The translations under genes were made by a program, and so were the position numbers. Shown in pieces: positions 1 through 27,089 of a stretch of DNA of 64,000 bases. Origin of the DNA: a virus; UHGV virus genome UHGV-1376965; one strand, 5' to 3'. The notes below the pieces were generated by a model that made no database searches, was not told the origin of the DNA, and saw only the letters and a program-made list of their open reading frames with translations. Each line of letters opens with the position of its first letter. Position 1 is the first letter of the stretch.

Positions 1-600
1 GCGGCCAGCACTTCAGACGTGCTGTTAGTGGCACTACTGAGCTGAGTGATGCCTTTCGCTGTCAATGAAGCTGTTGGCACACCAGTAATCTGATTCCAGG
101 GATGTGTATGACTGGATGGTGCCTTTCCGGCTGCTAGATCGTATGCAGCTTTAACCGCTTTTGGCGTTGCAGCTAATGTTTCAGAAGTGCTGTTGGTGTC
201 GCTACTGAGCTGAACTATCCCTTTTTGTGTCGTGGTTGCATCCTGGGCTGTATACTTCCCGTTAGCCAGGTCATATGCAGCCTTGACAGCTTTCGGTGTG
301 GCGGCCAGCACTTCAGACGTGCTGTTAGTGGCACTACTGAGCTGAGTGATGCCTTTCGCTGTCAATGAAGCTGTTGGCACACCAGTAATCTGATTCCAGG
401 GATGTGTATGACTGGATGGTGCCTTTCCGGCTGCTAGATCGTATGCAGCTTTAACCGCTTTTGGCGTTGCAGCTAATGTTTCAGAAGTGCTGTTGGTGTC
501 GCTACTGAGCTGAACTATCCCTTTTTGTGTCGTGGTTGCATCCTGGGCTGTATACTTCCCGTTAGCCAGGTCATATGCAGCCTTGACAGCTTTCGGTGTG
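1..600. repeat. Perfect 300-bp tandem duplication (two identical units, then a diverged partial third to about 750) inside the tail fibre gene
   Basis: Bases 1-300 and 301-600 are identical base for base; 601 onward restarts the unit with substitutions. Each unit is in frame (100 aa). Confidence 0.95.
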
Positions 601-1310
601 GCGGCCAGCACTTCAGACGTGCTGTTAGTAGCACTGCTGAGCTGAACTAATCCCTTTTGCGTTGTGCTTGCATCCTGCGCCGTATACTTGCTTTTCGCCA
701 GATCGTAGGCTTTTTTAACTGCCAGCGAACTTGCAGCGACATCACTTCTGGTACTGGTTACAGAGTCGGAAATTTCAATGCCTATCGTGAGATCGATGCG
801 GTCGGATACATCTATCATTTCCTGAGTAATAGCAGATACGCCAGCAGGGATATTCACCGTACAAACAAGCAGTTCCCCATCTCCTAACTGATATGAATCG
901 GTATAGGTTCTGGCAACAAATTCAGCCGCATGAATATGTGACGCGGTATTAACCTGATAAGAATCTTCTCCAAGGAGGTATCTTCCCTTCAGCACAATTG
1001 CATATTTCTTACCTGCGCTAAGTGCAAGAGAAATATCCTTACGCTGCTGAATAGTTACCTGGTAGAATTCACCAATATTCACTGACGCCGCGCCAGCGGT
1101 TTTATCACCATCCACTGAGGTGATTAACAGGTTCATTCCACCGCCAGGCTTAGGCAAGAAACCAGCATAAAATCCCGGGTCAACAATTCCCCTGAATTTT
1201 CGGTTTAGAGCGGCTGACAGATATGGTTCGTGGTATTGCACATCAGCCACCAGAGCCAACGACTCGGGTGATGGGTAAGTAACCGATGTAACAACTGTAA
1301 CGTCATTCAT
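1..1310 (-). CDS. Side tail fibre protein, N-terminal part; gene runs off the window start
   Basis: Reverse-strand frame starts MNDVTVV at 1310 behind an AAGGAT ribosome-binding site; translation contains repeated GIVQLSSxTNSTSExLAATPKAVKAAYDLA motifs typical of lambda Stf / Mu S-type fibres. Not in the ORF track because there is no stop inside the window. Confidence 0.8.
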   Translation of the reverse strand, partial: MNDVTVVTSVTYPSPESLALVADVQYHEPYLSAALNRKFRGIVDPGFYAGFLPKPGGGMNLLITSVDGDKTAGAASVNIGEFYQVTIQQRKDISLALSAGKKYAIVLKGRYLLGEDSYQVNTASHIHAAEFVARTYTDSYQLGDGELLVCTVNIPAGVSAITQEMIDVSDRIDLTIGIEISDSVTSTRSDVAASSLAVKKAYDLAKSKYTAQDASTTQKGLVQLSSATNSTSEVLAATPKAVKAAYDLANGKYTAQDATTTQKGIVQLSSDTNSTSETLAATPKAVKAAYDLAAGKAPSSHTHPWNQITGVPTASLTAKGITQLSSATNSTSEVLAATPKAVKAAYDLANGKYTAQDATTTQKGIVQLSSDTNSTSETLAATPKAVKAAYDLAAGKAPSSHTHPWNQITGVPTASLTAKGITQLSSATNSTSEVLA

Positions 1311-1321
1311 CAAGCATATCC

Positions 1322-1756
1322 TTATGCTGTAGTCGAGTTTATGGCCATAACTGCGGTATATGTTTTGCCCACATACAGCGAGTCTTCTTGGACACAAATA
1401 ATGGCGATTGGCTTATTCTCGTTATCCAGAACAACCAGAGTGTTGAATGGGTAGTTTTTCCCTTCCTGCAACTGACTTTGATCAAGGTCCATTCGGACAG
1501 TAATTATCCCGCCTGAGTAGGTTGGGACGAGGTTGATGGTGCAAAATTGACTGGTCAGTTCTGCCAGATCGAAAGCCTTTGGCAGTTCTCCAATCTCATA
1601 AGTGCCATCTCCTTTCTTAGTAACCAGTGAACTGGTACCGAAAACGGCCTTGCTGATTAAAAATCGAGAGCCTTTGTTAATGGACGATTCAGCGCGCCGC
1701 TGATAGTAATAGTCCAACAACTGACTCTTATAGAGGTTTGTTGAGACGTCAGACAT
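1322..1756 (-). CDS. Tail fibre-associated protein (P1 R-like position)
   Basis: 144-aa ORF directly upstream of the fibre gene on the same strand; assignment by position only. Confidence 0.55.
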   Translation of the reverse strand: MSDVSTNLYKSQLLDYYYQRRAESSINKGSRFLISKAVFGTSSLVTKKGDGTYEIGELPKAFDLAELTSQFCTINLVPTYSGGIITVRMDLDQSQLQEGKNYPFNTLVVLDNENKPIAIICVQEDSLYVGKTYTAVMAINSTTA

Positions 1757-1834
1757 GATTTTCCCTAATCAATGTTGTGAAGCCTCATTGTAAGATAAGT
1801 AACTTGTCACCCCGCCCTGCGGACGGGGTGATTG

Positions 1835-2674
1835 TCACGCATCGCTATCCAACAGCAAATCATCTGCGCGGGTGCGATCAAACGTAGGCGTTGCTTTCAC
1901 AATAGTGCCGCCCGGCGTTGCAGTGATCGGGGCGTTAATCGACGTAACTTCAGTAAGCGAAGTTGTATCCGAAGTTTCAAACCAGCAGAATGCTTTTTCG
2001 GTATCAGAAATCTCATTCAAAGTGATCATGTCGGCCTGTTCATTTACAACAACCGACAAATAGAGCGTAAGCCCATCAAACACTATATGCAGTGGCAGTA
2101 GAGGCTTTACGAACTGATTAAACTTTCTGAGAATTTCTTCTGTAATTGCGGACTGATCTATCGTTCCAGTAATACCCATTGTCCGGGCCAGGTCGTTTAT
2201 GGGAATACTGATCATTCCTCTGGAAGTCAGAAACATCTCGCCGAATGTGCCGCCGGTGGTTTCCAGTGTGCTTTCTGGAATCAGGACCGTGCCATAGGGA
2301 TGACGTTCAAAGTCCACCGGAGCATATATGGGATCCCATAAAACCGATATACCGTTAAATTCGCGATAAATTGTCTGGTTTATAGGGCGTTCAGTACCCT
2401 TAAAATGGATCTCATCAAACCGCTGTTGTAACAACATCGGAACGGAAGATGAATTCGACGTTCTGATAGTAAAAAACTGGCCAAGTTCATTTGTCCTAGT
2501 CTCCAGATCCTCCTTGCTCATGGAGAAAATAGACTTCCGGTTGGTAATTCGCTCCAACCATGGGTCAACAAAGGTGTCCATCATTGACTGAACCAAATCA
2601 GCCAATGATTTATAAAGTAATGACTTTTGCTTAGCTGATGTAAGCCGGTTATTAAACCAGGAACGTTGCATCAC
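1835..2674 (-). CDS. Baseplate/tail structural protein
   Basis: 279-aa ORF whose start overlaps the upstream baseplate gene by 4 bp (translational coupling); in baseplate operon. Confidence 0.55.
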   Translation of the reverse strand: MMQRSWFNNRLTSAKQKSLLYKSLADLVQSMMDTFVDPWLERITNRKSIFSMSKEDLETRTNELGQFFTIRTSNSSSVPMLLQQRFDEIHFKGTERPINQTIYREFNGISVLWDPIYAPVDFERHPYGTVLIPESTLETTGGTFGEMFLTSRGMISIPINDLARTMGITGTIDQSAITEEILRKFNQFVKPLLPLHIVFDGLTLYLSVVVNEQADMITLNEISDTEKAFCWFETSDTTSLTEVTSINAPITATPGGTIVKATPTFDRTRADDLLLDSDA

Positions 2675-4104
2675 TCCTCCTCATACGAAATATTAAAGGT
2701 GGAGTTTTCTGTATCCAGATAAACGAAATCGTAAAAGCCGTTGGACTCATTCCACTCGACAAATTCCAGATAAAAGTCGCGGAAATAACCCAGCGTTTCG
2801 ATAAATGCCCAAACGTCTTTTTTCTTGATTAGGATGTACTTGCCGACACGGTTCGGATCAAAGAAAGTTGAGTCACGCCCAAATTTTGTTTCCAGTGCCG
2901 ACTTCAGCTCATCAGTCACGTTCTCAATGGTCAGGCTTGCCGATATCCGCCCAGTGATGGTGATCTTAAAGGGTAGTTTTCTGACCTCTTTATACGAGAA
3001 TTTCTTGTTCAACTCATTCGGCACCTTCTTAAAGGCAGCCAGGATCATTTCTTCAAGCTCTGACTGGCTTTTGTTTGGATGCCATCCTGAAATAAATATC
3101 TTATTGATATTCCGAACATTATAAGCACCATCTAATTTCTCTTGCTGGCCTTCGCCCCATGCCTTTACCCAGGACAGTCCCGGGATGTTACGCACCAGAA
3201 AATACGTATAGTCCCCGCCCCATACGACCTGATCATCATAGGCAAGGTAATATTGTGCACGATTACGTGTGATCTCCGTTGTTTCGGCATCGGTACCTGC
3301 GGTTATGGGTGTCGTTGTCTTAACTGAAATCAAATTAGCTAAATTAGCCGCAGAATCGACAGGAGTCAGGTTTTGGCCAGCAACCAGGGTTATATCTCCG
3401 TTGGTGCACCATACCTTAAGTGTAATGGTCGAGCCTTCTGGCGGTATTTGCCCAATTAGCCCATCACCGAATCGAACCCCCAACTGCTCGGATGGCTTAT
3501 AAAACTCAACGTAGACCTGGCTTTTACTACCGGCTAACCGGAACATAGTGCTGGAAGACCACTGCGTGGTCTTACCATCGGTCGTCACGAATACTTCCAG
3601 CTTATAGCAGACAGCAGTGAGAGCCTTTGATAACACGACTTCCAGAAATTCTTTGGCTGCCGTAACGGTATATGTCACCTCCTGGATTTCCAACTGTGCC
3701 ACTTCTACCGTACCGGTGCCGTCAACCAACCTGCATACATCCATAGTCATGTAAGGGTACTGGTCGTCAGATATTAAAGGCGTGTTTTTGGGGATTACCG
3801 CTGGAGCATCTTCACTTGTGGCTGTGATCTCAACCATCCCGGATGACGGTGTTGGCTTGGTACCAACGTAACTATTCGTTTCTGCCGCTGCCAGGATAGA
3901 GGAACGCCGCGTCGCGGTCGATATAAAGCCTTCAGCCAGCGCCGCATCGGCATACTGAAAGCACCTGTAGACAATCTGGGTAATAAACAATGTCAGCATC
4001 GAGACAAATTGAGAGCCGACAAACTTCGACCAGAATGAATCTTTCTCGACAAGCTCTTCAAACTCTGCACGAATACTGTCTTTAGTCGGTGTTGTTTTAC
4101 TCAT
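2671..4104 (-). CDS. Baseplate protein (J-like wedge component)
   Basis: 477-aa ORF, overlap-coupled to both neighbours; size and position fit a baseplate wedge protein. Confidence 0.55.
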   Translation of the reverse strand: MSKTTPTKDSIRAEFEELVEKDSFWSKFVGSQFVSMLTLFITQIVYRCFQYADAALAEGFISTATRRSSILAAAETNSYVGTKPTPSSGMVEITATSEDAPAVIPKNTPLISDDQYPYMTMDVCRLVDGTGTVEVAQLEIQEVTYTVTAAKEFLEVVLSKALTAVCYKLEVFVTTDGKTTQWSSSTMFRLAGSKSQVYVEFYKPSEQLGVRFGDGLIGQIPPEGSTITLKVWCTNGDITLVAGQNLTPVDSAANLANLISVKTTTPITAGTDAETTEITRNRAQYYLAYDDQVVWGGDYTYFLVRNIPGLSWVKAWGEGQQEKLDGAYNVRNINKIFISGWHPNKSQSELEEMILAAFKKVPNELNKKFSYKEVRKLPFKITITGRISASLTIENVTDELKSALETKFGRDSTFFDPNRVGKYILIKKKDVWAFIETLGYFRDFYLEFVEWNESNGFYDFVYLDTENSTFNISYEEE

Positions 4105-4460
4105 AGCACCACGTCCTGTGTGATAGTTATATCCCTGATACGAATGGATATTTTCAACTTATCAAAAGCATCTCCCTCGGCTACTGACAAACCAGAAATC
4201 GGTATGTCAGGTAAATCTACCGTCAGTTTTTGCAACAGCATTGCCTCAACCGCAATTTGAACATGCGACAAGTTGGTCGGTTCGTGTTTAAACTGCGGTA
4301 AAACATTGCCCCATGACGGATCCCCGTATACCTCACCCTGATAAGTGTTTAGCCACTCATATAAACGAGCGCCCCAGGCCTCCTCCTGGGACTCATACGT
4401 TTTTACGCCGGATAACTCCAGCGTCAGTAAAGGATCAATTTCATTATTGTTGGCCATCAA
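4101..4460 (-). CDS. Small baseplate protein (gp25/W-like position)
   Basis: 119-aa ORF overlap-coupled to the sit stop. Confidence 0.5.
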   Translation of the reverse strand: MMANNNEIDPLLTLELSGVKTYESQEEAWGARLYEWLNTYQGEVYGDPSWGNVLPQFKHEPTNLSHVQIAVEAMLLQKLTVDLPDIPISGLSVAEGDAFDKLKISIRIRDITITQDVVL

Positions 4461-7400
4461 TCAACTCTCGCGTAGTCATTCATCAACGGATCATCAATTG
4501 ACAGTGGCACCGTGCGCATAACGCCCGGTTGAGGCGTGCTGACCTTTACGACAGTTCCCTGGCCTTTCGCCGAGTCTTTAGTGTGCTCTTCAATCCTGGC
4601 AAGCAATGAGGTCATCTGCGCAAACAGCCGCTTCGTTTCACCATCAAGTGAAACGGTATTATCAGCCAACTGCATTGTCGGCTTGGCACCGGAGCCGCCA
4701 AGGTCACTAATAACCTGTCCGTCTATCTGCATACGACCGGTTGGTTGCTGCAAATCGTTGGCGGCAGTCGTCACCAGGGACGTGGAGGCTGGTTCAGGCG
4801 CATTATTTTTCCGCATCCCCGGCGAGTTGCGGAGTTTATCGAATAGTCCATCAATCCCCATTTGTGCGCCGAGTTGGTCAAAGTAACTTGAGTTGCTGGC
4901 CACCGGACGCGCCTCTTCAACTGGCATCGGAGTATCAACATACACATTGCCAGCTGCTGTTGCGGTCCCCTTCCCTCGTGCACGTTCTTCGAGCGTTCCC
5001 TGAACGACTTCCCGACGCATACCCCGGCCATTCATGAATTTGTTGACCAGATCGTTAACACCAACAGCATTGCCAATTTTGTCTACCAGACCGCCTTTCT
5101 CAAACGGGCTATCACCAGGGGTAAACGCCAGGCCAGTAGACTGATCGATAACAGCGTTATCAGGCAGCTTTTCGTGAATTGCTGGTGCGCTATGATCTAC
5201 CTTAGAGCCATAAACGGCACCATTATTGAGCATCTGCTGATACCCTCTGACACGAGTAACATATTCGCCGGTACCGGCGACTACTCTCCCCTTATCAACA
5301 TGCCCCATACCAGCATGATAGGCAGCTATTGCACGACCCTGATCACCGTTATAACGGTTCATCAGCATACTTAGGTATCTGGCGGCACCATCAGCTGCTT
5401 TTCGTGTATCCATGGCATCAGCATCGCTGAGTCCAAGATCCTCCCTTGTACCTTTAGTGATCTGAAAAGCCCCAAGGGCAGATGAAAGTTTGTTCCCGTT
5501 TTTGTCTACTGGATTTCCAGTTCTCTGGCCTGCACTAGACTCTGCGGATGCAACTGCTGACAGAATCCCTTTTTCAAGCCCATACTTACGTTCAAGCTCA
5601 TCAAAATAATCGGCATTGTCAGAAATCCATTGGTATCCGGCAGCATTTAATTTTGGCAAAGAAACATCCTTGCCATTGTTAAATCGACGTTTATCTATCT
5701 CATATGCACTTAATGCTTCCTCCTTACCTGTAGCAGACTGGCCCAAGGCAGCATCAATTGTTTGTGCTGCTTTATTTCCTGTTTCTACGGCATTTGCATT
5801 GATAATCTGATTAGCAGTTTCTTTAACTGTTTTATTGCTATCTTTCGCCATATCCAGGGCCGCATTTATCACGCGAGCAGCAATATTAGTCTGTTTGGCA
5901 TCGGATTCAGCTTTAGAATCAGATGTCCCCTGCTGGCTATTAACCGGAGCTTTTAACTCTGGAGTGATTTCTTTCGCATTAGCCTCGCCGATCGGATTGG
6001 GTATTTTTGATACAATCATTGCCGCAGGGGTATTTTTAACGGCATCAACCGCTGCATCTAATGCTTTACCTGGTAAATTTTTAACCCCATCCCAAATATT
6101 ACTAGCTGCCTCTTTAATGTGTTTCCCTGGGTTCTTAATGAAATCAATTGCACTATCAATTGCATCACTGAAAACCTGTTTCAGGTTATCGACAGTAAAG
6201 AAGTCTTTGATGGCATCCAGCTTTTCAAGCAGCTTATTAGATGTATCGCTAAACCATGCTGAAACAGCATCACCAATCTTTGCTGTGTAATCATCGAACT
6301 TGGTAGAAATGGTGTCGCCAAGGTTAGAAATATATGTTTCTAAGTTGGTAATCCCACTATCAATGGCCTGGGCAATACTTTCCGTCGAAAATGATTGCAA
6401 CATATTGCCGATATCCTCAAATCCAAGTGATTTGAGAGCCTCACCAATGGCGCTGCTAATACCAGATACCAGTCCCCCCATATCAAGAACATTAGCTAAC
6501 GTATAAGCGGCTTTTTGCTGGAATGATGGATCTTGTCCTGATTTAAGCCCAAACGCTCGACGTTGCGTTTCTGTATCATTCCAACCGGTTACCGCATCAT
6601 AAATACCTCCAGCCACTGTGCCGACTAGGGGAATTGCGCGTAACGCCCCTTTACCAACTGCCTTTAATCCAAGTTTACCTGCTGCCCGGGCAGCCAAATC
6701 TCCGCCTTCATGGGCGAGAGTCTTCTTGCCACCACCGCGTAGCATTCCTACAAGTTTCTTTGCCCCCAGAGCGCCAAAAGCGAGTGCTCCAGCTTTTTTC
6801 AGCATGCCACGCCCCATTAACAACGACGCGACGCCACCGGCCCCCTTCCCTAACAGGCTAAATAATTTGGACAGCAAGCCGCCCTTCTTTTTCCCGGTGT
6901 TTTTGGCTATCTGATCAAGGGCGCTGAGAATCTTGTCATTGCCCTCTTTAATTTCGCTGGTCTGATCCTGAAGTTCCTGAACCGTCCGTTTTTGGGTGTT
7001 AACCTGAACGACATCGGCACTATTTTGCGATTTACGCCTAAAAAAACCTTTTCTACGGCTGTTATCGTCATTGCCACGAATCACATCGGCAATAGACTTT
7101 CTGGCACCATTAAGCGATCCACCAACTTCTTTTGATATCCCGCCAAGCTCCTTCCCTGCGGCCCACAATGGACCAGCAACGGCATAACCTAACGCATCGA
7201 CGGCGCGAGTCTCTGAAGGGTTACCTATGCCTTCAGCTACTTTTGACAGTTTTTTTAATAAACCTGATTCAGCATTTAGACGCTCATCATCCTCTTTGCG
7301 CCTGGCCTTTTCAGCACGTTCAGCACGGGCATCTTCCGCTGCGGCCTTACTCCCTGGCTTTCCAATAAAACGACCACGCGCATCGCGTTGGTTTTGGCTT

Positions 7401-7831
7401 TTTTGCGCACCGCCTTTTTGACCGAACATTTCGCGAGCGTGTTCGGCTGCTTCGGTCCGTTGCGCCTTTACATCTTCTGTTATAGCCTTCTTGCGTCGTT
7501 TTTTACCCTTTCGCGTAGTTGATTTGGCCTGCGGTTCCTGTAGAGCAACATCCTCCTGAACTACACGAGAAACGTCCCCTAAATTAAGCCGTTTCATTGC
7601 CTCAACAATAGGGGCCACTGATGGCGCATTGGCCACAAAGTCTGGCCTGGAATTTTCGATTGTGCGATTTAATGCCGACACACTGTGAGAGACAGGATCA
7701 ACAGTTGCAACGCGTCCCCCTTTCAAATCTTCAACAGCTTCCCGGATACCTGCAAGCTCTTCCAGCTCTTTTGCGCTGGCGGTTTCAACTGTCCTTATAA
7801 CATCGTCAATGTTGGCGTTTTTTCTTTCCAT
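4457..7831 (-). CDS. sit: Structural injection transglycosylase / tape-measure-like protein with C-terminal lytic transglycosylase domain
   Basis: 1124 aa; long Ala/Gly/Lys-rich coiled region; soluble lytic transglycosylase signature (GAFQI ... AAYHAG) in the C-terminal third. Confidence 0.85.
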   Translation of the reverse strand: MERKNANIDDVIRTVETASAKELEELAGIREAVEDLKGGRVATVDPVSHSVSALNRTIENSRPDFVANAPSVAPIVEAMKRLNLGDVSRVVQEDVALQEPQAKSTTRKGKKRRKKAITEDVKAQRTEAAEHAREMFGQKGGAQKSQNQRDARGRFIGKPGSKAAAEDARAERAEKARRKEDDERLNAESGLLKKLSKVAEGIGNPSETRAVDALGYAVAGPLWAAGKELGGISKEVGGSLNGARKSIADVIRGNDDNSRRKGFFRRKSQNSADVVQVNTQKRTVQELQDQTSEIKEGNDKILSALDQIAKNTGKKKGGLLSKLFSLLGKGAGGVASLLMGRGMLKKAGALAFGALGAKKLVGMLRGGGKKTLAHEGGDLAARAAGKLGLKAVGKGALRAIPLVGTVAGGIYDAVTGWNDTETQRRAFGLKSGQDPSFQQKAAYTLANVLDMGGLVSGISSAIGEALKSLGFEDIGNMLQSFSTESIAQAIDSGITNLETYISNLGDTISTKFDDYTAKIGDAVSAWFSDTSNKLLEKLDAIKDFFTVDNLKQVFSDAIDSAIDFIKNPGKHIKEAASNIWDGVKNLPGKALDAAVDAVKNTPAAMIVSKIPNPIGEANAKEITPELKAPVNSQQGTSDSKAESDAKQTNIAARVINAALDMAKDSNKTVKETANQIINANAVETGNKAAQTIDAALGQSATGKEEALSAYEIDKRRFNNGKDVSLPKLNAAGYQWISDNADYFDELERKYGLEKGILSAVASAESSAGQRTGNPVDKNGNKLSSALGAFQITKGTREDLGLSDADAMDTRKAADGAARYLSMLMNRYNGDQGRAIAAYHAGMGHVDKGRVVAGTGEYVTRVRGYQQMLNNGAVYGSKVDHSAPAIHEKLPDNAVIDQSTGLAFTPGDSPFEKGGLVDKIGNAVGVNDLVNKFMNGRGMRREVVQGTLEERARGKGTATAAGNVYVDTPMPVEEARPVASNSSYFDQLGAQMGIDGLFDKLRNSPGMRKNNAPEPASTSLVTTAANDLQQPTGRMQIDGQVISDLGGSGAKPTMQLADNTVSLDGETKRLFAQMTSLLARIEEHTKDSAKGQGTVVKVSTPQPGVMRTVPLSIDDPLMNDYARVD

Positions 7832-7912
7832 GATCTTATCGCCTACCGTTTCGGTTTAAGTTTTTCTTCCAGTTTCTCCAACAGGAAAAACGCATAGGAT
7901 TCAGTAAGCCTT

Positions 7913-8794
7913 TCAGCGTCCTGAATCGGTATACCCCCATACAAAACCAGGTTGGATACTAAGGTCTGATAGCTTTTCAATCCCCACCTGTGGAATGAAG
8001 TCGGTAGCCCGAAAGGGCACCCACAGACGGGTAAACGCACCCTCTGTGGACTCCTTTTTGTCCTGGTTTGGGCATTTATGCGGCGGGAGACGAAGACGCA
8101 TTTCACCTTTATCGATGTAGCACGGTAAACCATGTTCGAGCTTTTCATGAGCCAGTCGGATGTGTGCCGCCAGCTTCATAAATTCAGTATCAATGGCCAT
8201 CCGTTTAATCGTTTCATAACGACGCTCAGCCTGATCTTCACGAGTACCGCTAACATCGTTATAAAGCTCACACTGATAAGCGAATTCCCAAAAACGCAAA
8301 TCAACGATCGCTTCTTTGAATTCCGCGTCGTCTTCAGGTGGCAATGCTGCACGGCGCATCTCCAGCATTTCCATTGCCCAACCATCAAGCGGCACGATAC
8401 GCCATTGATAAGGCACGCCCTCTACAGACACCTCAATATCGTCAATGAACGGTTCCACTTCCAGGACCTGGATATCTTCAGCCAGAGCATTCATATCGCA
8501 ATCGTAATAATGCTCTTTACCGCAATGTTTACAGGTGTAGGTGAATGTCTCGACCGGTGTTTCACGGGAGCCGGTAAATATCCACCATAACGCGGTAATC
8601 CGGTCCTGCGCCGTCCATGTCAGGGGATCATGTTTCGCGGGTTCAGCCAGCAAGGCTTTTAAATATGCCGTTGTCTGTTGTTCTTGTTCCTCCGGTGTTA
8701 TCGAGTTGAAACGCATCGCATCAGCAATATTTGGCTGACGGAACTGGATCAATTCAGTTGGCCGCGATGGTAGCGGGAAAAGGGGTAAAAGCAT
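7913..8794 (-). CDS. Hypothetical virion-associated protein with CxxC...C zinc-ribbon-like motif
   Basis: 293-aa ORF upstream of sit on the same strand; contains CKHCGKEHYYDC. Confidence 0.5.
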   Translation of the reverse strand: MLLPLFPLPSRPTELIQFRQPNIADAMRFNSITPEEQEQQTTAYLKALLAEPAKHDPLTWTAQDRITALWWIFTGSRETPVETFTYTCKHCGKEHYYDCDMNALAEDIQVLEVEPFIDDIEVSVEGVPYQWRIVPLDGWAMEMLEMRRAALPPEDDAEFKEAIVDLRFWEFAYQCELYNDVSGTREDQAERRYETIKRMAIDTEFMKLAAHIRLAHEKLEHGLPCYIDKGEMRLRLPPHKCPNQDKKESTEGAFTRLWVPFRATDFIPQVGIEKLSDLSIQPGFVWGYTDSGR

Positions 8795-8808
8795 CCTTGC
8801 TCCTTAAT

Positions 8809-9420
8809 TCAAAGAGAAAAACTAAAGCCCAGAAGGGAAGCCAAAGAACTTGAGGATTGGTTAAACGTGCTGTGCAATGCGAAGGTCATTGGGAATGACT
8901 TAAATTCCGTGACCTGATCCCGCGCATAGGTGACATCGCCGGTAGTAACCGGGAATACCGTCATCTCATTTTCCAGTTTGGTTAAACCGGAAGACAGCAA
9001 CCGATAAATACGCACATTGAGCAAATATTTAGACGGTATATTCCCGGTACCGTCCGGATTGATCACCCGACTTTTTGCCGTCTTAAACCAGTCCAAAACG
9101 AGGCCATCAACGGTATCCCTGACCATCATTGTTATCTGCCCAGGCGAACGCTCCGTTGGTTGAAGGATATTCCCTCCGCCGATTTTAATCGTTTCATATT
9201 CGATGCTGTAATCGTGGTAGGTAATATCTTTGGCAAAGAAGTCTGCCCCCTCCAGTCCATCAACTTCGACAGAGAACTGCCATCCTTGCGCGAACAGCAT
9301 TTTGTTCATGATGATTGACGTCAGCTTACCAACTTCCCGCTCACCAACGCCGGAGCCAAATAATGTCGTCGTTAATGCCGAAGATACATAAGACTTTACT
9401 GAAGCAACATTAAGCCCCAT
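8809..9420 (-). CDS. Hypothetical tail structural protein
   Basis: 203-aa ORF in structural operon; no recognisable motif. Confidence 0.5.
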   Translation of the reverse strand: MGLNVASVKSYVSSALTTTLFGSGVGEREVGKLTSIIMNKMLFAQGWQFSVEVDGLEGADFFAKDITYHDYSIEYETIKIGGGNILQPTERSPGQITMMVRDTVDGLVLDWFKTAKSRVINPDGTGNIPSKYLLNVRIYRLLSSGLTKLENEMTVFPVTTGDVTYARDQVTEFKSFPMTFALHSTFNQSSSSLASLLGFSFSL

Positions 9421-9430
9421 ATCAGCCCCC

Positions 9431-10021
<591 letters not shown>

Positions 10022-10151
10022 TTAACCGATTCTACGAGTAGTCATTTGTTCATTGAGTAGGAATATTGTTGTCTGGGGGGTAATCAGTGTAGGTGGAATG
10101 AGGGATATGATATGGTTATCACATAATCAGGTTGTTTTGAGTAAAACAATA

Positions 10152-10178
10152 AAACGCCCTTTAATGGGCGTTTTTTTA
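10152..10178. terminator. Bidirectional rho-independent terminator
   Basis: AAAACGCCCTTTAATGGGCGTTTTTTT: GC stem with T-runs on both strands, just downstream of the sim-like operon. Confidence 0.7.
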
Positions 10179-10205
10179 AACTTAAATTGACTATCCTTTC
10201 AAATA

Positions 10206-11000
10206 CTATTTTAATTCTATGTAATTTTTAAATTCTCCCTCATATTTATACATGATGCTATCAAATCCTTCCATTACATCAACGAATTGTTGTGAACATT
10301 CCGGCTTCCAAGGCGTACACTTACGAACCATATCCATTTTTTTCTTATCCTTCGTTGTATCGACTAAGGATAGGTACCCTATAAAATTCATCATCTGAAC
10401 AGGATCTTGATTTGTGAATATATATTTGACGTTTTGCTTAGTAGGCGAAAAAGAATCAAAAGCAGGGAACATATATTCACCAGAAAAAGAGAGTGCAGCA
10501 TCAATGACGTCTGTTGCAGGAGTGCAGTTGCTCAGAATTGGCACTAAGCTAAAATTAGCACCGGAGCACACTGCATATATATCATCCCCTTTTTTTAGTT
10601 TTAACAGAGAGTCTTGCTTTGAATCCAATATTTTCAATTTGATATAATTTAGTGGCGTTGCATTTTCCCCTGGAGTAAATAATTCTACAATTGGTTTATT
10701 ATTCACCATTCTTATGGATTTTATTTCACCATACACAATTGGAATTGTGTTCCATTTTTCCTGAGCAGCAAATTCATTATCTTTAAAATCATTAACCAAC
10801 TCAGATGGCAAATGATAACCAAATTGATTGTTCATTGCTTTCGAAGCAAATCCAGACAAATAGAATGCCCTTACTAAATCATAATCTTTCTTTGAGGTAG
10901 AAAGCCAATCTGGCAATTTATTATCAGCTATCGCGCTTCCAGCAAAAATAGCACAACAAAATGTTATTACATTAAATAATTTCATTTTCCATTCACTCAT
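10206..11000 (-). CDS. Secreted protein, SimC-like (superinfection exclusion position); start may be at 10985
   Basis: N-terminal signal peptide MKLFNVITFCCAIFAGSAIA; AT-rich; position matches P1 sim region as I recall it. Confidence 0.6.
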   Translation of the reverse strand: MSEWKMKLFNVITFCCAIFAGSAIADNKLPDWLSTSKKDYDLVRAFYLSGFASKAMNNQFGYHLPSELVNDFKDNEFAAQEKWNTIPIVYGEIKSIRMVNNKPIVELFTPGENATPLNYIKLKILDSKQDSLLKLKKGDDIYAVCSGANFSLVPILSNCTPATDVIDAALSFSGEYMFPAFDSFSPTKQNVKYIFTNQDPVQMMNFIGYLSLVDTTKDKKKMDMVRKCTPWKPECSQQFVDVMEGFDSIMYKYEGEFKNYIELK

Positions 11001-11310
11001 TAATCGGTTTAAACTCACTAATTAATTCACCAAGACTATTTGGGTATGCTTTATAAATAACATACTCCGAAGAGCCATCTGAATATTGGTAAACCCCATA
11101 ACAGACCAGTTTATTTATTCCTTTCTGAATAGTTTTTTGATTATAAGAATCAACCACTGTTATTCCATATGACGATAATATTTCGTTATATTCTTCAATA
11201 AGAGCTTTTCTTGTTTCCACTGAATTGCAATCTACCTTCGAAAAGTCAACTTCATCAGCAAAAACATTAAATGTTAAAAAGGAAAGCACTAAAAACAAAC
11301 GAATCAGCAT
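10993..11310 (-). CDS. Small secreted protein, SimB-like
   Basis: Signal peptide MLIRLFLVLSFLTFNVFA; AGGAG ribosome-binding site upstream of the second ATG. Confidence 0.55.
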   Translation of the reverse strand: MLIRLFLVLSFLTFNVFADEVDFSKVDCNSVETRKALIEEYNEILSSYGITVVDSYNQKTIQKGINKLVCYGVYQYSDGSSEYVIYKAYPNSLGELISEFKPINE

Positions 11311-11331
11311 AAATCCACTCCTACGCATGGA

Positions 11332-11463
11332 TTAATAGTCATTGATCGCAAAGGCGTAAACGTGCCCAAGGTATTTCGTATAATCGGTACAAATCTCCTT
11401 TACGCTTGATGCTGCATTAACAGTCCCAGCCATAAATAATAACGGTAGTAATAGTTTTCTCAT
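11332..11463 (-). CDS. 43-aa secreted peptide (SimA-like position)
   Basis: MRKLLLPLLFMAGTVNAASSVKEICTDYTKYLGHVYAFAINDY; signal-peptide-like N-terminus; below the ORF-track length cutoff. Confidence 0.4.
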   Translation of the reverse strand: MRKLLLPLLFMAGTVNAASSVKEICTDYTKYLGHVYAFAINDY

Positions 11464-11559
11464 TATAACCTCACCTGCCTTATAACTCATTTAGGGTACA
11501 TATTTTCGCCTTTAAAAAAAAGAGGTTATTAGATCCAACTGTGTATTTATTAAACAAAT

Positions 11560-11576
11560 AATGCTCTAATAAATTT
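11560..11576 (+). promoter_or_regulatory. C1-operator-like 17-mer (AATGCTCTAATAAATTT) upstream of c4-icd-ant
   Basis: 16 of 17 match to ATTGCTCTAATAAATTT, which I recall as the P1 C1 repressor operator consensus. Confidence 0.65.
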
Positions 11577-11762
11577 GTATTTTTAAGTCGCGAATGCTAT
11601 CTTTTCGCATCATATTGACCTTTTAATCGTTCAGGCTTATAGTTCCACCGTCGTAGCAAATTCTGCGACCGGGTTTGACAGCCTGAATGTTAGTGCGGAC
11701 AACCGCAGATTTCCGATATTGCGGTATTTTTGTGTCCGTAAACCGCGTTACGCCCGAATTAT

Positions 11763-11839
11763 GGTGGGGCGTGATGGGGAGGCTTCGGCCTGCTGGTTTC
11801 ACTAACGCCAGTCTGTCAACCCTGTCACGTCCTGCCACC
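11763..11839 (+). ncRNA. c4: c4-like antisense RNA, 77 nt, tRNA-like ends GGTGG...CCACC
   Basis: 77-nt segment with complementary 5' and 3' ends; internal TTCACTAAC and CTGTCAA are complementary to GTTAGTGAGG (icd ribosome-binding site) and TTGACAG just downstream. Confidence 0.6.
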
Positions 11840-11889
11840 TGTTTGACAGCGGGTAGCAGGTTGTTAAACCTGTTAGTGAGGCCGTAACT

Positions 11890-12111
11890 ATGGTTAATGC
11901 CAATCCTTGCACACGCCCAGAATTCATCTGGCGTTTCTATTCCTGTAAAAAACACCACTATCACTTCGTTATCGCAGCAACTGAAGACGAAGCACGCTCT
12001 CAATTGCCTGATGGCCCCTGCATTTTTACTGCCCGTTTTTCTACTAACTCGCGCAATTCACTTAGTTACTGGAACCTCCCCTTCTCTGCCGACGTTCAGG
12101 GGGGTTTATGA
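11890..12111 (+). CDS. icd: Icd-like small protein (interference with cell division)
   Basis: 73-aa ORF directly after c4 whose stop overlaps the ant start; size and position match P1 icd. Confidence 0.65.
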   Translation: MVNANPCTRPEFIWRFYSCKKHHYHFVIAATEDEARSQLPDGPCIFTARFSTNSRNSLSYWNLPFSADVQGGL

Positions 12112-13151
12112 AAAAACCTCTCGTCACCCGTAATGAAATAGCCGAAGCGATCGCTTTGCATACTGCCTGTATGCCGACACGGGAGATCCCCGGCGCAATT
12201 GCTAACTATTTCATGATAACCAGGCGTTTTTATACCCGAACAGATAAGGCTGTGATCAACAGGCTACTGATAGCCGAGATCAGGGATTATTTGATTGAAC
12301 AAGGACGTCTACGTTACGCAACAGTGGCAGCAGAAATAAGAAAGGAGGCACATAGAATGACCGGTAATAATTTGAATGTTGAAAAAACAGCACCTGTTAC
12401 GTCAGCTACGCCAGCACCAGCCGTGAATATCATCCCCAACACCGGAGACACAATCGACAGCCAAACATTGTTGAAGATGGTCAATGAGGCACGCAAGTTA
12501 TGTGGAGAACCAGAGGTTAGAAACAATAAATTCATCGAAAAAATACTCGATGAACTTGAAGGTGAATTTTACACAAAAAGTGCAAAATCCCATGGCACAA
12601 GGGCTGGGCGCTCTTTTGAGGTCATCACCATGACCTACAAACAAGCCCTGCGAGTCGCCGCGCGCGAGTCAAAAGCGGTCCGCCGTTCGCTGATCGACAA
12701 ACTGGAAGAATTGCAGCAGGCAAACTCCCCTGCCCCATCGATCCCCCAAACATTACCAGAAGCTCTACGCCTGGCTGCCGAGTTGGCAGAACAGAAAATG
12801 CAGCTGGAACAACAGCTGGTGGCCGCAGCCCCTAAAGTCGATTTTGCCGACCGGGTATCAGTGGCTAATGGAATCCTGATCGGGAACTTTGCAAAGGTCG
12901 TTGGACTTAAGCAAAACGCCCTTTTCTCATGGTTGCGCCAGAACGGCATTCTCATGGCTTTTGGTGCGCGCAAAAACGTACCGCGCCAGCAGTACATTAA
13001 CGCCGGGTATTTCACGGTGAAAGAAGTGGTGCTGGATGATGAAAATGGCTACCAGATACGGCTGACGCCCCAATTAACGGGTAAAGGCCAGCAGTGGTTA
13101 ACTCGCAAGCTACTTGATGCTGGTTTGTTAAAACCAGTAGCAATAGGTTAA
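12108..13151 (+). CDS. ant1: Antirepressor Ant
   Basis: 347 aa; C-terminal domain (PEALRLAAELAEQK ... GKGQQWL ... LLDAG) is shared with the next gene's C-terminus, the antirepressor-type domain. Confidence 0.8.
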   Translation: MKKPLVTRNEIAEAIALHTACMPTREIPGAIANYFMITRRFYTRTDKAVINRLLIAEIRDYLIEQGRLRYATVAAEIRKEAHRMTGNNLNVEKTAPVTSATPAPAVNIIPNTGDTIDSQTLLKMVNEARKLCGEPEVRNNKFIEKILDELEGEFYTKSAKSHGTRAGRSFEVITMTYKQALRVAARESKAVRRSLIDKLEELQQANSPAPSIPQTLPEALRLAAELAEQKMQLEQQLVAAAPKVDFADRVSVANGILIGNFAKVVGLKQNALFSWLRQNGILMAFGARKNVPRQQYINAGYFTVKEVVLDDENGYQIRLTPQLTGKGQQWLTRKLLDAGLLKPVAIG

Positions 13152-13162
13152 CAAAAGAAAAA

Positions 13163-13190
13163 AACCTGCCAGCAAACTGGCAGGTTTCTG
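13163..13190 (+). terminator. Rho-independent terminator after ant
   Basis: AACCTGCCAGCAAACTGGCAGGTTTCT hairpin. Confidence 0.6.
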
Positions 13191-13229
13191 AGCAGATCGT
13201 CCAACCCGATCTGGATCGAGCCAGAAAAA

Positions 13230-13246
13230 TTTGCTCTAATAAATTT
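13230..13246 (+). promoter_or_regulatory. C1-operator-like 17-mer upstream of kilA-repL
   Basis: TTTGCTCTAATAAATTT, 16 of 17 match. Confidence 0.65.
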
Positions 13247-13315
13247 CGTTTTCTAAGTGCAAAGAATCACCATTTCGAGCTGGTGATTGAAGGTTGATGC
13301 AAATTTGGAGAAAAA

Positions 13316-14116
13316 ATGCAACAAACATTCAATGCGGATATGAATATATCAAACCTTCATCAAAATGTCGATCCTTCAACCACTCTGCCCGTTATTTGTG
13401 GTGTTGAAATTACGACCGACCGCGCTGGCCGTTACAACCTTAATGCTCTACACAGAGCGAGCGGACTCGGTGCCCATAAAGCGCCAGCTCAATGGCTAAG
13501 AACGCTGTCAGCTAAACAGCTCATCGAAGAGCTTGAAAAAGAAACTATGCAGAATTGCATAGTTTCGTTCGAAGGCCGTGGCGGCGGCACTTTTGCCCAT
13601 GAATTGCTCGCTGTGGAGTACGCAGGCTGGATTTCTCCCGCGTTTCGGCTGAAGGTAAACCAGACATTTATCGACTATCGAACCGGAAGATTACAACCTG
13701 CTATTCCGCAGAGTCTCCCTGAAGCTCTCCGTTTGGCTGCCGACCTGGCAGAGCAAAAGCAACGGCTGGAGCAAAAAATGCTTATGGATGCACCTAAAGT
13801 CGAATTCGCTGAACGCGTTGCTACCGCCAGCGGGGTTCTAATCGGCAACTATGCCAAAGTGCTCGGCCTGGGCCAAAACTATCTCTTCACCTGGTTGCGT
13901 GATAACGGAATTCTGATCGCAACCGGTGAACGCAGGAACGTCCCCAAACAAGAATACATATCCCGTGGGTATTTCACCCTTAAAGAAACCGTGATCGATA
14001 CAAGCAATGGAAGCAGGATTTCTTTCACGACTCGTATAACCGGCAAAGGTCAGCAGTGGCTGATGAAGCGATTGCTTGATGCTGGTGTGCTGGTACCTGT
14101 CGCGGCAACGCGCTAA
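13316..14116 (+). CDS. kilA: KilA (KilA-N domain plus antirepressor-like C-terminal domain)
   Basis: 266 aa; N-terminal KilA-N-like segment (GRYNLNALHRA ... GTFAHELLAVEYAGWISP); C-terminus paralogous to Ant. Confidence 0.75.
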   Translation: MQQTFNADMNISNLHQNVDPSTTLPVICGVEITTDRAGRYNLNALHRASGLGAHKAPAQWLRTLSAKQLIEELEKETMQNCIVSFEGRGGGTFAHELLAVEYAGWISPAFRLKVNQTFIDYRTGRLQPAIPQSLPEALRLAADLAEQKQRLEQKMLMDAPKVEFAERVATASGVLIGNYAKVLGLGQNYLFTWLRDNGILIATGERRNVPKQEYISRGYFTLKETVIDTSNGSRISFTTRITGKGQQWLMKRLLDAGVLVPVAATR

Positions 14117-14145
14117 CAGACGTAGTAAGAACCACCAGCATTGTA

Positions 14146-14991
14146 ATGCTGGCTAAAGTCACTTTCCTGAGCTGTATAACGATGAGCGATTTTACTTTTT
14201 CTGGCTATGAATTGGCCTGCTTTGTAACACACTCCGGTCTATCCCGTAGCGCCGGGCATATCCTGTCGCAATGTGCAAATCTCGCGGCAACAACCAGTGA
14301 ATACTTCATTCACAAGCCTCACCGCCTGATCGCGGCAGAAACTGGTTATAGCCAATCAACCGTCGTTCGTGCATTCCGTGAAGCTGTAAACAAAGGAATC
14401 CTGTCTGTAGAGATTGTTATCGGCGATCACCGTGAACGTCGCGCTAACCTGTACCGGTTTACACCATCCTTTTTGGCCTTCGCACAACAAGCCAAAAATG
14501 CGCTGATTGAAAGCAAATTAAAGATCTCTTCAGCGGCAACCAAGGTTAAAGCTGTTCTCGCTAAGACATTGGCTTTATTTAATTTTTTATCCACACCCCC
14601 ATGTCAAAATGATACCCCCTCCCCCTGTCAGGATGACGTGGCAATAAAGAATAAGAAGTCACAAGTTAAAAAAACAAAAAGATCAGTTTCCGGCGGTGCC
14701 GGAACGAGCAGACTCAAAAAATTGACTTCATGGATCGCTGAGACAAAAGCAAAGGCTGACAATCTGCGGTTATCCAAAAAACGCGCACAAAAACATGAGT
14801 TCAAGCAGAAAGTAGAGGCGGCAGCGCGGAAATATGCTTACCTGAAGAACAAGCGTTCTCCTGATATTGGCGGGGTATCAAACTTCGATAATTTGCCGCA
14901 TTGCATGACGGTAAACGAAGCTCTTAATGCGGTTTTAGCCAAAAATAAAGATAACGAAAAATGGGGTATACCGGTAGGATTCAGAGGGTGA
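14146..14991 (+). CDS. repL: Lytic replication initiator RepL
   Basis: 281 aa, directly downstream of kilA; size and order match P1 repL. Confidence 0.7.
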   Translation: MLAKVTFLSCITMSDFTFSGYELACFVTHSGLSRSAGHILSQCANLAATTSEYFIHKPHRLIAAETGYSQSTVVRAFREAVNKGILSVEIVIGDHRERRANLYRFTPSFLAFAQQAKNALIESKLKISSAATKVKAVLAKTLALFNFLSTPPCQNDTPSPCQDDVAIKNKKSQVKKTKRSVSGGAGTSRLKKLTSWIAETKAKADNLRLSKKRAQKHEFKQKVEAAARKYAYLKNKRSPDIGGVSNFDNLPHCMTVNEALNAVLAKNKDNEKWGIPVGFRG

Positions 14992-14994
14992 TAG

Positions 14995-15011
14995 ATTGCT
15001 CTAATTATAAC
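14995..15011 (+). promoter_or_regulatory. Degenerate C1-operator-like 17-mer (ATTGCTCTAATTATAAC)
   Basis: 13 of 17 match to the operator consensus, immediately after the repL stop. Confidence 0.4.
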
Positions 15012-15159
15012 CATGCATACTTTCAACACCTCTAGTTTGCCATGAGGAAAACTCATAGGCGTCCTGGTAAGATGACGTAGTTAGCAAATCAGAACGTCCA
15101 ATTATTGCAATTAATAAACAACTAACGGACAATTCTACCTAACAATAAGTGGAGTTAAC

Positions 15160-15864
15160 ATGTTGAACCGAAGAACATTTAATGTATTCTGCGATGAATC
15201 CTGTCACCTACTAAATGATCATAATAAAGTCATGGTATTGGGTGCGCTTTGGTGTCCTGGCACTATCACAAAAAAAATTGCTAGAGACATCAAGGGATTA
15301 AAATTAAAACACAATTTAAAACCTGATTTCGAAATCAAGTGGACTAAAGTATCTGCGTCCAAAGTTGAATTTTACTTAGAGGTCGTAGATTACTTCTTCA
15401 GCAACCCAGCATTGCGCTTTAGAGGTGTTGTTGTTCCTGATAAAGAGCAACTGGACCATGCTCGATTCCATCAAGATCATAATACTTTCTATTATAAGAT
15501 GTTTTTTTATGTCTTAAAAAACATAATAGAAAGTAACAACACATACAATATCTACCTAGATATAAAAGATACTTTAGGTATTGAAAAAATTGAGAAATTA
15601 AGAGGAGTTCTTCACAATGATCGCTATGATTACAATCATGAGTCGATAAACAGAATTCAACATATACGATCTCATGAAGTGCAACAATTGCAGCTAACGG
15701 ATCTTTTCATTGGTGCGTTAGGCTACGTTCATCGAGGAATGAATAGCAACGCGGGAAAAATCCAAGTCATAAACAGGATAAAATCACATACAAACAGGGA
15801 GTTACTAAAAAGCACTCTTCCAACAGAAAGTAAATTTAATATTTTCGTGTGGGAGGCTCGCTGA
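15160..15864 (+). CDS. DUF3800-like protein (N-terminal FNVFCDES motif)
   Basis: 234 aa; GGAG ribosome-binding site 7 nt upstream; strongly AT-rich; N-terminal D-E-S signature resembles DUF3800. Confidence 0.7.
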   Translation: MLNRRTFNVFCDESCHLLNDHNKVMVLGALWCPGTITKKIARDIKGLKLKHNLKPDFEIKWTKVSASKVEFYLEVVDYFFSNPALRFRGVVVPDKEQLDHARFHQDHNTFYYKMFFYVLKNIIESNNTYNIYLDIKDTLGIEKIEKLRGVLHNDRYDYNHESINRIQHIRSHEVQQLQLTDLFIGALGYVHRGMNSNAGKIQVINRIKSHTNRELLKSTLPTESKFNIFVWEAR

Positions 15865-16328
15865 TGCTTCAAATGCCAGATTTATTGTACTTCAATGGAA
15901 GTTGGCAAGAGTATATAGACGATGTATATGATGTTGTTAGAGAAGATATTTTAATCTCTAATATAACGTTTAAGGGTCTCCCTGTTCGATTACGTTATTC
16001 ACCGGAATATGATGGGAAAGAGTTCGGATTTTGGCATTTAGTATCAGAGGGAAAAATAGAAGAAGAACGAATACCTGATCTTGAACGGTGTAAGCGGATC
16101 CGCTGGATCGCGCATATGATAAGGAATTATGACCATTGCGATATATCATGTTGGTCTGAAAGACGAGGACCAACTGAAGAGTGGGTAATCTGGAACGAGT
16201 GTGAAAACTACGTTGTTGTGCTATCCGCACGTAGAGACTATTGGCTTCTCAAAACAGCCTATGTTGTAACCTATGACAGTAAAATCAGAACACTCAAACA
16301 AAGCAGAAAAAGAGCACTTGGGACATAA
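15864..16328 (+). CDS. Hypothetical Cys/His-rich protein, translationally coupled partner of the DUF3800-like gene
   Basis: ATG shares its A with the upstream TGA stop (TGATG overlap); about 154 aa; no recognisable domain. Confidence 0.6.
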   Translation: MLQMPDLLYFNGSWQEYIDDVYDVVREDILISNITFKGLPVRLRYSPEYDGKEFGFWHLVSEGKIEEERIPDLERCKRIRWIAHMIRNYDHCDISCWSERRGPTEEWVIWNECENYVVVLSARRDYWLLKTAYVVTYDSKIRTLKQSRKRALGT

Positions 16329-16332
16329 AAAA

Positions 16333-16372
16333 GCTGAACCCGACACATATTGCTATGTATCGGGTTCGATCG
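16333..16372. terminator. Bidirectional hairpin terminator between convergent genes
   Basis: GAACCCGACACAT...ATGTATCGGGTTC stem; T-run on the minus strand. Confidence 0.55.
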
Positions 16373-16494
16373 CTCTTTCTACGCATGGTAGATGAGTAAG
16401 GTAAATCTAACCGATCTACTTTAGCTTTTCAATAGCTAGCTATAACTTTCCGCACATATTCTTCTGATAATTCCAGTATGGCGGTTGGGTTTTC

Positions 16495-16791
16495 TTATGC
16501 TTTCCTGCGCAGAGGCGCACACTTATTCAGCAATAATAAATGTAATTCTTTGTTATCCCTAAGTATTTCGACACACCAATATCGTAACGTGTTCACTTCA
16601 AGTGTAGCCAGCACCTTATGTCGAAGTCCTCCCTCCCCTGCACATAACGATGGCCGACATTCTGCTAAGGCACATAACCATGTATTGGCATCATAGAGAA
16701 TCCAATAATGCTCCTCTGAAATAGTTTTGCATCCAATTATTTCGAATCTTCGTTCTATCGTTTCAGGAGAGTATGAAAAATCAATTTCCAT
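16495..16791 (-). CDS. Hypothetical 98-aa protein (orphan gene)
   Basis: ORF bounded by terminators on both sides. Confidence 0.45.
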   Translation of the reverse strand: MEIDFSYSPETIERRFEIIGCKTISEEHYWILYDANTWLCALAECRPSLCAGEGGLRHKVLATLEVNTLRYWCVEILRDNKELHLLLLNKCAPLRRKA

Positions 16792-16835
16792 AATATGCTC
16801 AAAATTTCGCTATACCGGCATAATTTAAGCACAAA

Positions 16836-16860
16836 AAAGCTCCCGTAGGAGCTTTAAAAT
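16836..16860 (-). terminator. Rho-independent terminator after the tail gene operon
   Basis: AAAAGCTCCCGTAGGAGCTTTAAAAT; minus strand reads hairpin then TTTTTT. Confidence 0.65.
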
Positions 16861-16874
16861 ACAAGGGGTGACTC

Positions 16875-17384: not shown

Positions 17385-17395
17385 ATAAAATCCTT

Positions 17396-17977: not shown

Positions 17978-18012
17978 TCAAGTTAAAGGCCGGAGTTCTC
18001 CGGCCTCCTCCT

Positions 18013-18828: not shown

Positions 18829-18837
18829 TGTATTCCC

Positions 18838-20427: not shown

Positions 20428-20487
20428 AACTTTCCCTGTTATGCGCCCCGCACGGGGGCGCTATGTTAAACGGAGAACTTCCCCTGA

Positions 20488-22415: not shown

Positions 22416-22419
22416 AAGT

Positions 22420-23421: not shown

Positions 23422-23437
23422 GGGGGTTTCTTACTCC

Positions 23438-24800: not shown

Positions 24801-24802
24801 TG

Positions 24803-27085: not shown

Positions 27086-27089
27086 AATA

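Follow-up and report, generated by a model that had tools for sequence, protein, structure and literature searches.

The question raised by this locus is whether a run of perfectly identical repeats inside a phage tail fibre gene is a genuine and changing structure or a product of sequence assembly and, if it is genuine, what process changes it and to what effect. The repeats lie at the very start of the window, by which is meant the whole stretch of viral DNA that was analysed (64,000 nucleotides, UHGV-1376965). A preliminary description had read them as a perfect 300-bp tandem duplication and had offered three alternatives, namely a very recent duplication, ongoing slippage or recombination that could vary fibre length, and an assembly collapse or expansion. 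Comparison with relatives favours slippage or recombination varying fibre length, on the strength of the spread in copy number, of arrays that differ behind the same flanks, of variants private to single arrays, and of hybrid modules, while an expansion artefact in the window is unlikely.

A repeat search of the window found positions 1-300 and 301-600 to be 100% identical, as two 300-nt copies, and Tandem Repeats Finder reported a single array at 1-645 with a period of 300, 2.2 copies, 99% matches, 0 indels, and a score of 1276. A repeat of this kind is far above chance expectation and cannot be due to chance. Counted as perfect units, the window holds 2.15 copies, cut at the window start; the total cannot be read from the window because the array passes its first letter, as had been said at the outset. 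Each of the two perfect tandem units (1..600, minus strand), defined by their identity, by Tandem Repeats Finder, and by translation, carries two modules. Translated in frame and without interruption, the 300-bp unit gives 100 amino acids consisting of module A (44 aa, GKYTAQDATTTQKGIVQLSSDTNSTSETLAATPKAVKAAYDLAA) and module B (56 aa, GKAPSSHTHPWNQITGVPTASLTAKGITQLSSATNSTSEVLAATPKAVKAAYDLAN), both of which are Phage_fiber_2 repeats, so that the two fibre repeats per unit of the preliminary description are borne out. In the direction of the gene, the first copy of module A (429..560, minus strand; S residues 251-294) is followed by the first copy of module B (261..428, minus strand; 56 aa, residues 295-350), which was placed by translation and Pfam PF03406 and contains SHTHPWNQITG, with a His-box-like HxH motif. 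The second copy of module A, again of 44 aa (129..260, minus strand; residues 351-394), and the second copy of module B (1..128, minus strand), which is cut by the window edge with residues 395-436 visible, were assigned by translation, the latter with the help of the module coordinates. Between the A tail and the B tail, identity is 72%, and the stretch of A/B similarity is about 78 nt long.

Upstream of the array in the gene lies a founder module, a0 (561..692, minus strand; 44 aa, residues 207-250), with an A-type head and a B-type tail, recognised by repeat search, by its identities, and by the P1 annotation, since it is present in P1 too, where it is annotated a0/a1. Over its full length it shares 74% identity with A, but over its last 78 nt it agrees with the B tail at 97%, and for this reason the repeat register runs on as far as 645. 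The extension into the 3' end of a0 (601..645, minus strand), delimited by the end of the Tandem Repeats Finder array and by base comparison, matches the unit at 43 of 45 bases, with mismatches at 630 and 636. It is preceded in the gene by a degenerate leading repeat fragment of 18 aa, SDVAASSLAVKKAYDLAK, seen in translation (693..746, minus strand; residues 189-206). Because both a0 and the fragment come before the array in gene orientation, they are the 5' founder end of the array and not a decayed third copy. The diverged partial third unit that had been described calls for other words: 601-645 still matches the unit, the sequence then diverges, and what was taken for a third copy is a0 at the 5' end.

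The gene that carries the array is read from the minus strand, as an open reading frame that starts with the ATG at 1310 and meets no stop before the window start, leaving 436 residues visible. These 436 residues match Pfam PF03406 (Phage_fiber_2) in 6 stretches, with 318.6 bits against a cut-off of 22 (E 2.6e-97). Residues 1-188 form a P1-type N-terminal domain (747..1310, minus strand), with 95-98% nucleotide identity to Punavirus records and with matches to phrog_454 and phrog_2631, 'tail fiber protein'; by analogy with P1, this domain would be the baseplate-attached end. The adjacent gene R (1322..1756, minus strand), the first of the R-S operon, encodes a tail fibre structure or assembly protein according to the list of open reading frames, the P1 annotation, and phrog_2032 (E 1e-84), and upstream of R a 19-mer, AAGTTACTTATCTTACAAT (1787..1805, minus strand), is an exact match to the annotated late promoter LPs of NC_005856. 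In P1 the homologous stretch is annotated with sit, pmgA, bplA, 16, R, and S, with LPs, with the repeats a0, a1, b1, and b2 in Sc, and with cix sites, the invertible C segment, and cin; the open reading frames of the window follow the P1 order (sit, pmgA, bplA, 16, R, S). A megablast search with the reverse strand of window 1-2700 matched P1, P7, RCS47, and SJ46 at 95-98%, and these matches reach from bplA across 16 and R and into S. P1 and P7 are 95% identical over query positions 1-2137, a span that takes in gene 16, R, and S as far as the first repeats, and the similarity to P1 ends at 2137.

The host gene of the array, judged by these matches, is the tail fibre gene S of a P1-like phage-plasmid (Punavirus, IncY), and the array lies in the constant shaft part of that gene, Sc. 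The earlier assignment to a tail fibre gene can be narrowed to P1 S by the 95% nucleotide identity to P1, P7, and SJ46 in the N-terminal domain and by the R-S operon context. As in a P1-type gpS, N-terminal homology and colinearity were found together with the position in the R-S operon with LPs; the b1/b2 shaft repeats of P1 are absent and the A-B array stands in their place. The S of the window is a mosaic variant of gpS and not the P1 allele. The layout of genes bearing the array is an N-terminal domain, a0, (A-B)n, a 59-aa tail reaching to cix (…YLGLGE), and then the exchangeable receptor-binding tip Sv. In the plasmid CP088415.1, a cix-like site (TTACCTTGGTTTGGGAGAAGG) lies at the …YLGLGE codons; beyond it come tip genes and assembly genes, found in both orientations, as well as a 'recombinase family protein'. 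Resolvase domains were seen in contigs of relatives that carry the window's Sit protein. On neither strand did window 1-3000 match Rfam or window 1-2000 contain a site resembling a promoter or terminator. The sole plus-strand open reading frame of at least 50 aa in that region, at 657-887, overlaps the coding sequence of S and is without support.

Close relatives show how long such an array can be. CP088415.1 (pF16EC0319-1, IncY, 95 kb) is 100% identical to the window over positions 1-9700 and 98.7% identical further on, and both it and CP088419.1 have 0 mismatches over window 1-9700 and the flanks compared. In each of the two, S is a protein of 865 aa with four perfect 300-bp units, followed by a tail of 59 aa (GKQAADATLTAL…YLGLG) and a collar-type tip; the unique tail beyond the array includes GCGGCAGACGCTACGCTCACTGC. 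The best complete matches to the window reach 99.2-99.3% over 25 kb. The perfect identity of the copies described at the outset (100%, Tandem Repeats Finder) is upheld, but "duplication" understates what is probably a longer array, with 4 units in the closest plasmids.

For a wider view, 18 complete plasmid records were fetched singly and decoded module by module. A BLAST search with a composite of flanks (5.1 kb of 5' flank joined to the 175-bp tail) gave few usable spans, the tail being unjoined or too diverged in most E. coli records. Copy number across the 18 records ranges from 1 to 7 B modules: one in L088; two in L096; three in L089, and in the first reading frame of L093 and L102, each of which has a fourth unit that is frameshifted or garbled; four in L004, L101, L086, L087, L090, and L097; five in L085, L091, L092, L094, and L098; six in L095; and seven in L099. 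The comparison of repeat number among related phages, which had been proposed as a check, thus yields 1, 2, 3, 4, 5, 6, or 7 B modules in complete relatives. The UK phage vB_EcoM-673R5 (L001) has five units, with the HTHPW (His-box) codons frameshifted in three of them. In the protein database, 13 architectures were found in the 89 representatives with a complete array among the best 120 cluster representatives. The fibre type is carried by about 161 of 5,426 complete E. coli genomes and by about 147 PLSDB plasmids, where a carrier is a record that holds at least 80% of the 2.7-kb query, which corresponds to the fibre type with at least two units. A search of the literature found no description of the 300-bp array or of its copy-number variation; variability of the tail fibre and C segment has been treated in general terms only (Venturini 2019; PMC6906374).

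Several features of these arrays bear the marks of recombination. Over a flank of 4,918 bp, made up of upstream sequence and the N-terminal domain, L093 (four A modules, the fourth B frameshifted) and L096 (two units) have 0 mismatches and yet their arrays differ, and the same holds for L004 and L102. Seven records that lie 0-2 nt from L004 over the N-terminal 618 nt have copy numbers of 4, 5, 4, 4, 1, 6, and 7. Within single arrays, the units resemble one another: L098 has the private alleles a16 (4 nt from a1) and B19 (7 nt from B0) in all five of its units, L086 repeats B4, and L095 repeats both a6 and B7. Private alleles common to all units of one array point to concerted evolution. L002, L095, and L099 contain out-of-register modules that join the head of B to the tail of A, and the arrays of L097 and L098 end in the converse, the head of A joined to the tail of B; the junctions of such hybrid modules fall in the stretch of A/B similarity.

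Other features speak of stability and constraint. The arrays of L091 (cattle, Hungary) and L094 (human urine, Norway) are the same, with five units and a G-to-E marker in the third, and this marker is also present in the third unit of the UK phage L001. The recurrence of this internal marker speaks for correct assembly of multi-unit arrays, and the identity of the L091 and L094 arrays across countries suggests a rate of change that is not extreme. Among the distinct alleles, variable sites are at third codon positions in 12 of 15 cases in A and 10 of 15 in B, and 11 of 15 are synonymous in each module, which indicates that the protein sequence of the repeats is under purifying selection.

Several features expected of a homology-driven, minisatellite-like polymorphism were found: in-frame head-to-tail units, copy number that differs between close relatives, and concerted evolution together with hybrids. 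The explanation that we favour, with considerable confidence, is that this is a real in-frame minisatellite-like array, the size of which would be changed by unequal homologous recombination or slippage, altering the length of the fibre shaft. Unequal homologous recombination between units, or slippage during replication, would add or remove 300 bp at a time. Exchanges would take place between sister or co-resident genomes and mostly in register, while rarer out-of-register events, mediated by the approximately 78 nt of similarity between the A and B tails, would lead to gain or loss of 132 or 168 bp. Because each step is a multiple of three bases, the protein would stay intact and gain or lose 100 aa per event (44 or 56 aa if out of register), and the outcome would be a trimeric fibre shaft of new length with the same baseplate end and the same tip. 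We take the S protein to be a homotrimer in which the repeats form the shaft and each unit lengthens the fibre; the rise per unit is presumably about 5-6 nm, a rough guess from the dimensions of T4 fibres, and the SHTH of module B is assumed to resemble the metal-binding HxH motifs of T4 gp37. An AF2 monomer model of window 3-710 (minus strand), a protein that presumably forms homotrimers, gave a mean pLDDT of 43.5 and a pTM of 0.26 and was unusable.

The main technical objection is that the window may be wrong, either because an assembler or polisher expanded one true unit or because the source contig starts inside an unresolved repeat. There is ample reason to be wary of assemblies here. Among draft and metagenome contigs that encode the window's exact 1,124-aa Sit protein, six show 1 unit, one shows 2 units, and four end inside the array. 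JADPUU010000017.1, a 95.9-kb draft contig that is 2 nt from the window over 17.6 kb, stops 1.3 units into the array, and the complete record AP024695.1 has a garbled fourth unit. In IMG/VR, contigs with the window's fibre type frequently break off where the array begins, at its first unit (L075, L082-L084), or have a single unit; the IMG/VR scan as a whole covered 80 loci, mostly short-read contigs with P1-type b repeats, and is informative on collapse and breaks and not on copy number. Part of the observed spread in copy number could therefore be technical, with public counts depending on the quality of assembly. These known errors go toward collapse and breakage, however, whereas the window has 2.15 perfect copies. 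At least two units are present in 17 of the 18 complete records, internal markers recur in independent assemblies from different countries and laboratories, with the five-unit array in three records, and both complete plasmids that are identical to the window in the array region have 4 units. The warning about assembly in the preliminary description is well founded as a general matter, given the collapsed, broken, and garbled arrays, but in the case of the window an expansion is unlikely in view of the independent complete assemblies with at least two units, and an assembly artefact as a whole would be a very improbable account of the locus.

A different objection would accept the array as real and assign its changes to a dedicated enzyme, either a Cin/Min-type invertase that acts at cix-like sites or another site-specific or retro-element system. 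In relatives, an invertible segment closes S and a serine recombinase accompanies it, so that a dedicated system for variation is next door. No cix-like site was found within the array, where the best matches, 12/20 to the P1 cixR core and 11/21 to the element's own crossover site, are chance-like, and no cix sites lie at the boundaries of the units, as a shufflon-like Cin/Min arrangement would have them. Serine invertases work on inverted sites, whereas the units are direct repeats, and the breakpoints of the hybrid modules lie in the A/B similarity region, as expected of events driven by homology. An enzyme of this kind is hardly credible as the cause. Copy-number change mediated by Cin was ruled out, the array being without a cix-like site, and a diversity-generating retroelement was rejected from the pattern of the repeats, the units being identical direct repeats in one frame with no template/variable-repeat pattern. 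It is quite possible, on the other hand, that a real array drifts in size through repeat instability with any number of units working and no tuning of length. From 1 to 7 copies occur, all in intact S frames of otherwise complete P1-like plasmids, in keeping with neutral copy number; purifying selection acts on the repeats themselves but says nothing on their number. Neutral drift is compatible with the preferred explanation of a recombining array and differs from it on function only. At the other extreme, the array might act as a contingency locus, with frequent gain and loss of 100 aa, lysates of mixed fibre lengths, and copy number selected by the depth of the O-antigen or capsule. This is an unlikely extension; if it were true, fibre length would add a second level of host-range variation to that given by the inversion of the tip by Cin/Min.

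The recombining array that we favour has consequences that are mainly practical. The locus is a trap for assembly and annotation, as short reads under-count the units or break within them and S is often annotated as truncated or partial; as a result of under-counted or broken arrays, comparisons of fibres and host-range predictions made from such records are unreliable. The fibre shaft of the P1 family, with shaft length deduced from sequence, would be polymorphic in length in steps of 100 aa, and the engineering of P1 for DNA delivery could draw on naturally occurring shafts of one to about seven units to test reach. The variation is of a common and fairly ordinary kind; it matters in practice to those who assemble and annotate P1-like plasmids, and its biological interest is modest. 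Current understanding is unchanged, since the S repeats of P1 and arrays of Phage_fiber_2 are already known.

Among the known systems, the closest is P1 itself, in which the S repeats a0, a1, b1, and b2 (NC_005856, GenBank M81956) lie in the same gene and in the same position after the N-terminal domain, share a0/a1, and are likewise in-frame tandem units of the shaft. The P1-type 222-bp b element also varies in copy number, with 1 in L078 and L080, 2 in P1, and 3 in L077. The two 74-aa b units of P1 (TKAPIESPSLTGTPTAPTAAQGTN…) are unrelated in sequence to the 100-aa A-B unit of the window, and the window-type S differs further from that of P1 in having more copies of its unit and then a different tail and a collar-type tip. 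In a sequence search, the S protein of phage Mu (PDB 5yvq, 9ki1, 8ju3) was the sole relative with a solved structure; one Phage_fiber_2 repeat aligns, at residues 109-150 (E 9e-7), and none of the solved structures found in this way spans an A-B unit. According to the P1 annotation, the tip segment of Mu is invertible too and is related to the P1 one, but Mu differs in that a single repeat was matched and there is no array. In the distal fibre genes of T-even phages, recombination reportedly takes place at 'His boxes' (GxHxH), giving mosaic tail fibres. There, as here, short conserved repeats within a fibre gene would supply the homology for rearrangement, and module B has SHTH; the T-even reports are said to deal with adhesin domains exchanged between phages, whereas here it is the copy number of a perfect 300-bp array that changes.

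The A-B array itself extends beyond phage-plasmids. At the DNA level, 159 E. coli records match at 80-90% identity; of the 1,550 places that match, 214 are chromosomal. The Stf-type fibres of lambdoid and other chromosomal E. coli prophages have the same A-B modules with HTHPW, the same GKQ[AP]ADATLTAL…YLGLGEGSALPVGVPVPWP tail, and the same collar tip, and the units of chromosomal prophage fibres are homogenised within each array, as in the plasmids. These prophage fibres differ from the S of the window in their unrelated N-terminal domains (MGNLNETEKWEE…, MGADKTNNIMTL…), in being integrated, and in lying outside the P1 R-S operon; in P0082 and P0013, unrelated N-termini precede the same array and tail. 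With array, tail, and tip shared in this way by chromosomal prophage fibres, the repeats serve also as homology for the exchange of fibre parts between phages, and the shared cassette fits the classical picture of mosaic tail fibres.

The closest complete plasmid, CP088415.1, an IncY plasmid with four perfect units in tail-fibre gene S, was the best complete match to the window, and no record identical to the window was found among the three collections searched. On alignment, window 1-31153 is a mosaic relative to this plasmid: identity is 100% across 1-9700, 98.7% at 9648-24736 and 98.2% at 27525-31153, while nothing in CP088415.1 aligns with 24737-27524.

Within S, the array of 300-bp units (module A followed by module B) is where one draft contig ends. 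This 95.9-kb sequence (L109, JADPUU010000017.1), which matches the window over 17.6 kb with 2 nt differences, stops 1.3 units into the array (its locus 16522-17629 corresponds to window 203-1310). Because it is about as big as a whole P1-like plasmid, this contig may be the entire plasmid, linearised at the unresolved repeat. Local errors within the array occur even in public "complete" records. The fourth unit is garbled in AP024695.1 (locus about 6000-6330), and in two UK phage records (ON470615.2 and ON470617.2) the S frame shifts at the HTHPW codons, the His-box motif of module B, in several units; S is therefore annotated there as fragments.

The same cassette is found in the fibres of chromosomal or other prophages. 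Three such proteins (P0082, P0086 and P0013) share the (A-B)n array, the GKQPADATLTAL…YLGLGEGSALPVGVPVPWP tail and the collar tip, and are preceded by unrelated N-terminal domains (MGNLNETEKWEE…, MGADKTNNIMTL…). In each of these arrays, the units have private variants in common. Copy-number variation was also seen for the other, P1-type shaft repeat, the b element (222 bp, 74 aa; S residues about 250-480), which is present once in L078 and L080, twice in P1 and three times in L077.

Elsewhere in the window, the stretch at 10000-12000 has a GC content of 36.5%, against about 48% in its surroundings, and is probably accessory cargo. It holds three small minus-strand ORFs with signal-peptide-like N-termini (10206-11018, 10993-11328 and 11332-11490), and the two that were compared with PHROGs both matched families of unknown function (phrog_14355 and phrog_14329). 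Three plus-strand tRNA genes were found: Asn-GTT (33281-33356), Thr-TGT (33359-33434) and one with a CAT anticodon (35435-35510). Gene 16 (1835-2674, minus strand) has a GTG start at 2674 in the mechanical ORF list; related records give an 837-bp CDS that starts one codon later and overlaps the bplA stop, a trivial ambiguity.

The region downstream of S maps past the window start and is known from relatives. In L103-L106 (locus about 18200-21400), it contains three to six short "Collar"-domain ORFs in both orientations, as well as a gene for tail-fibre assembly and a recombinase of the resolvase type. The layout suggests an inversion region with multiple cassettes, of the p15B Min type, more than the two-state C segment of P1.
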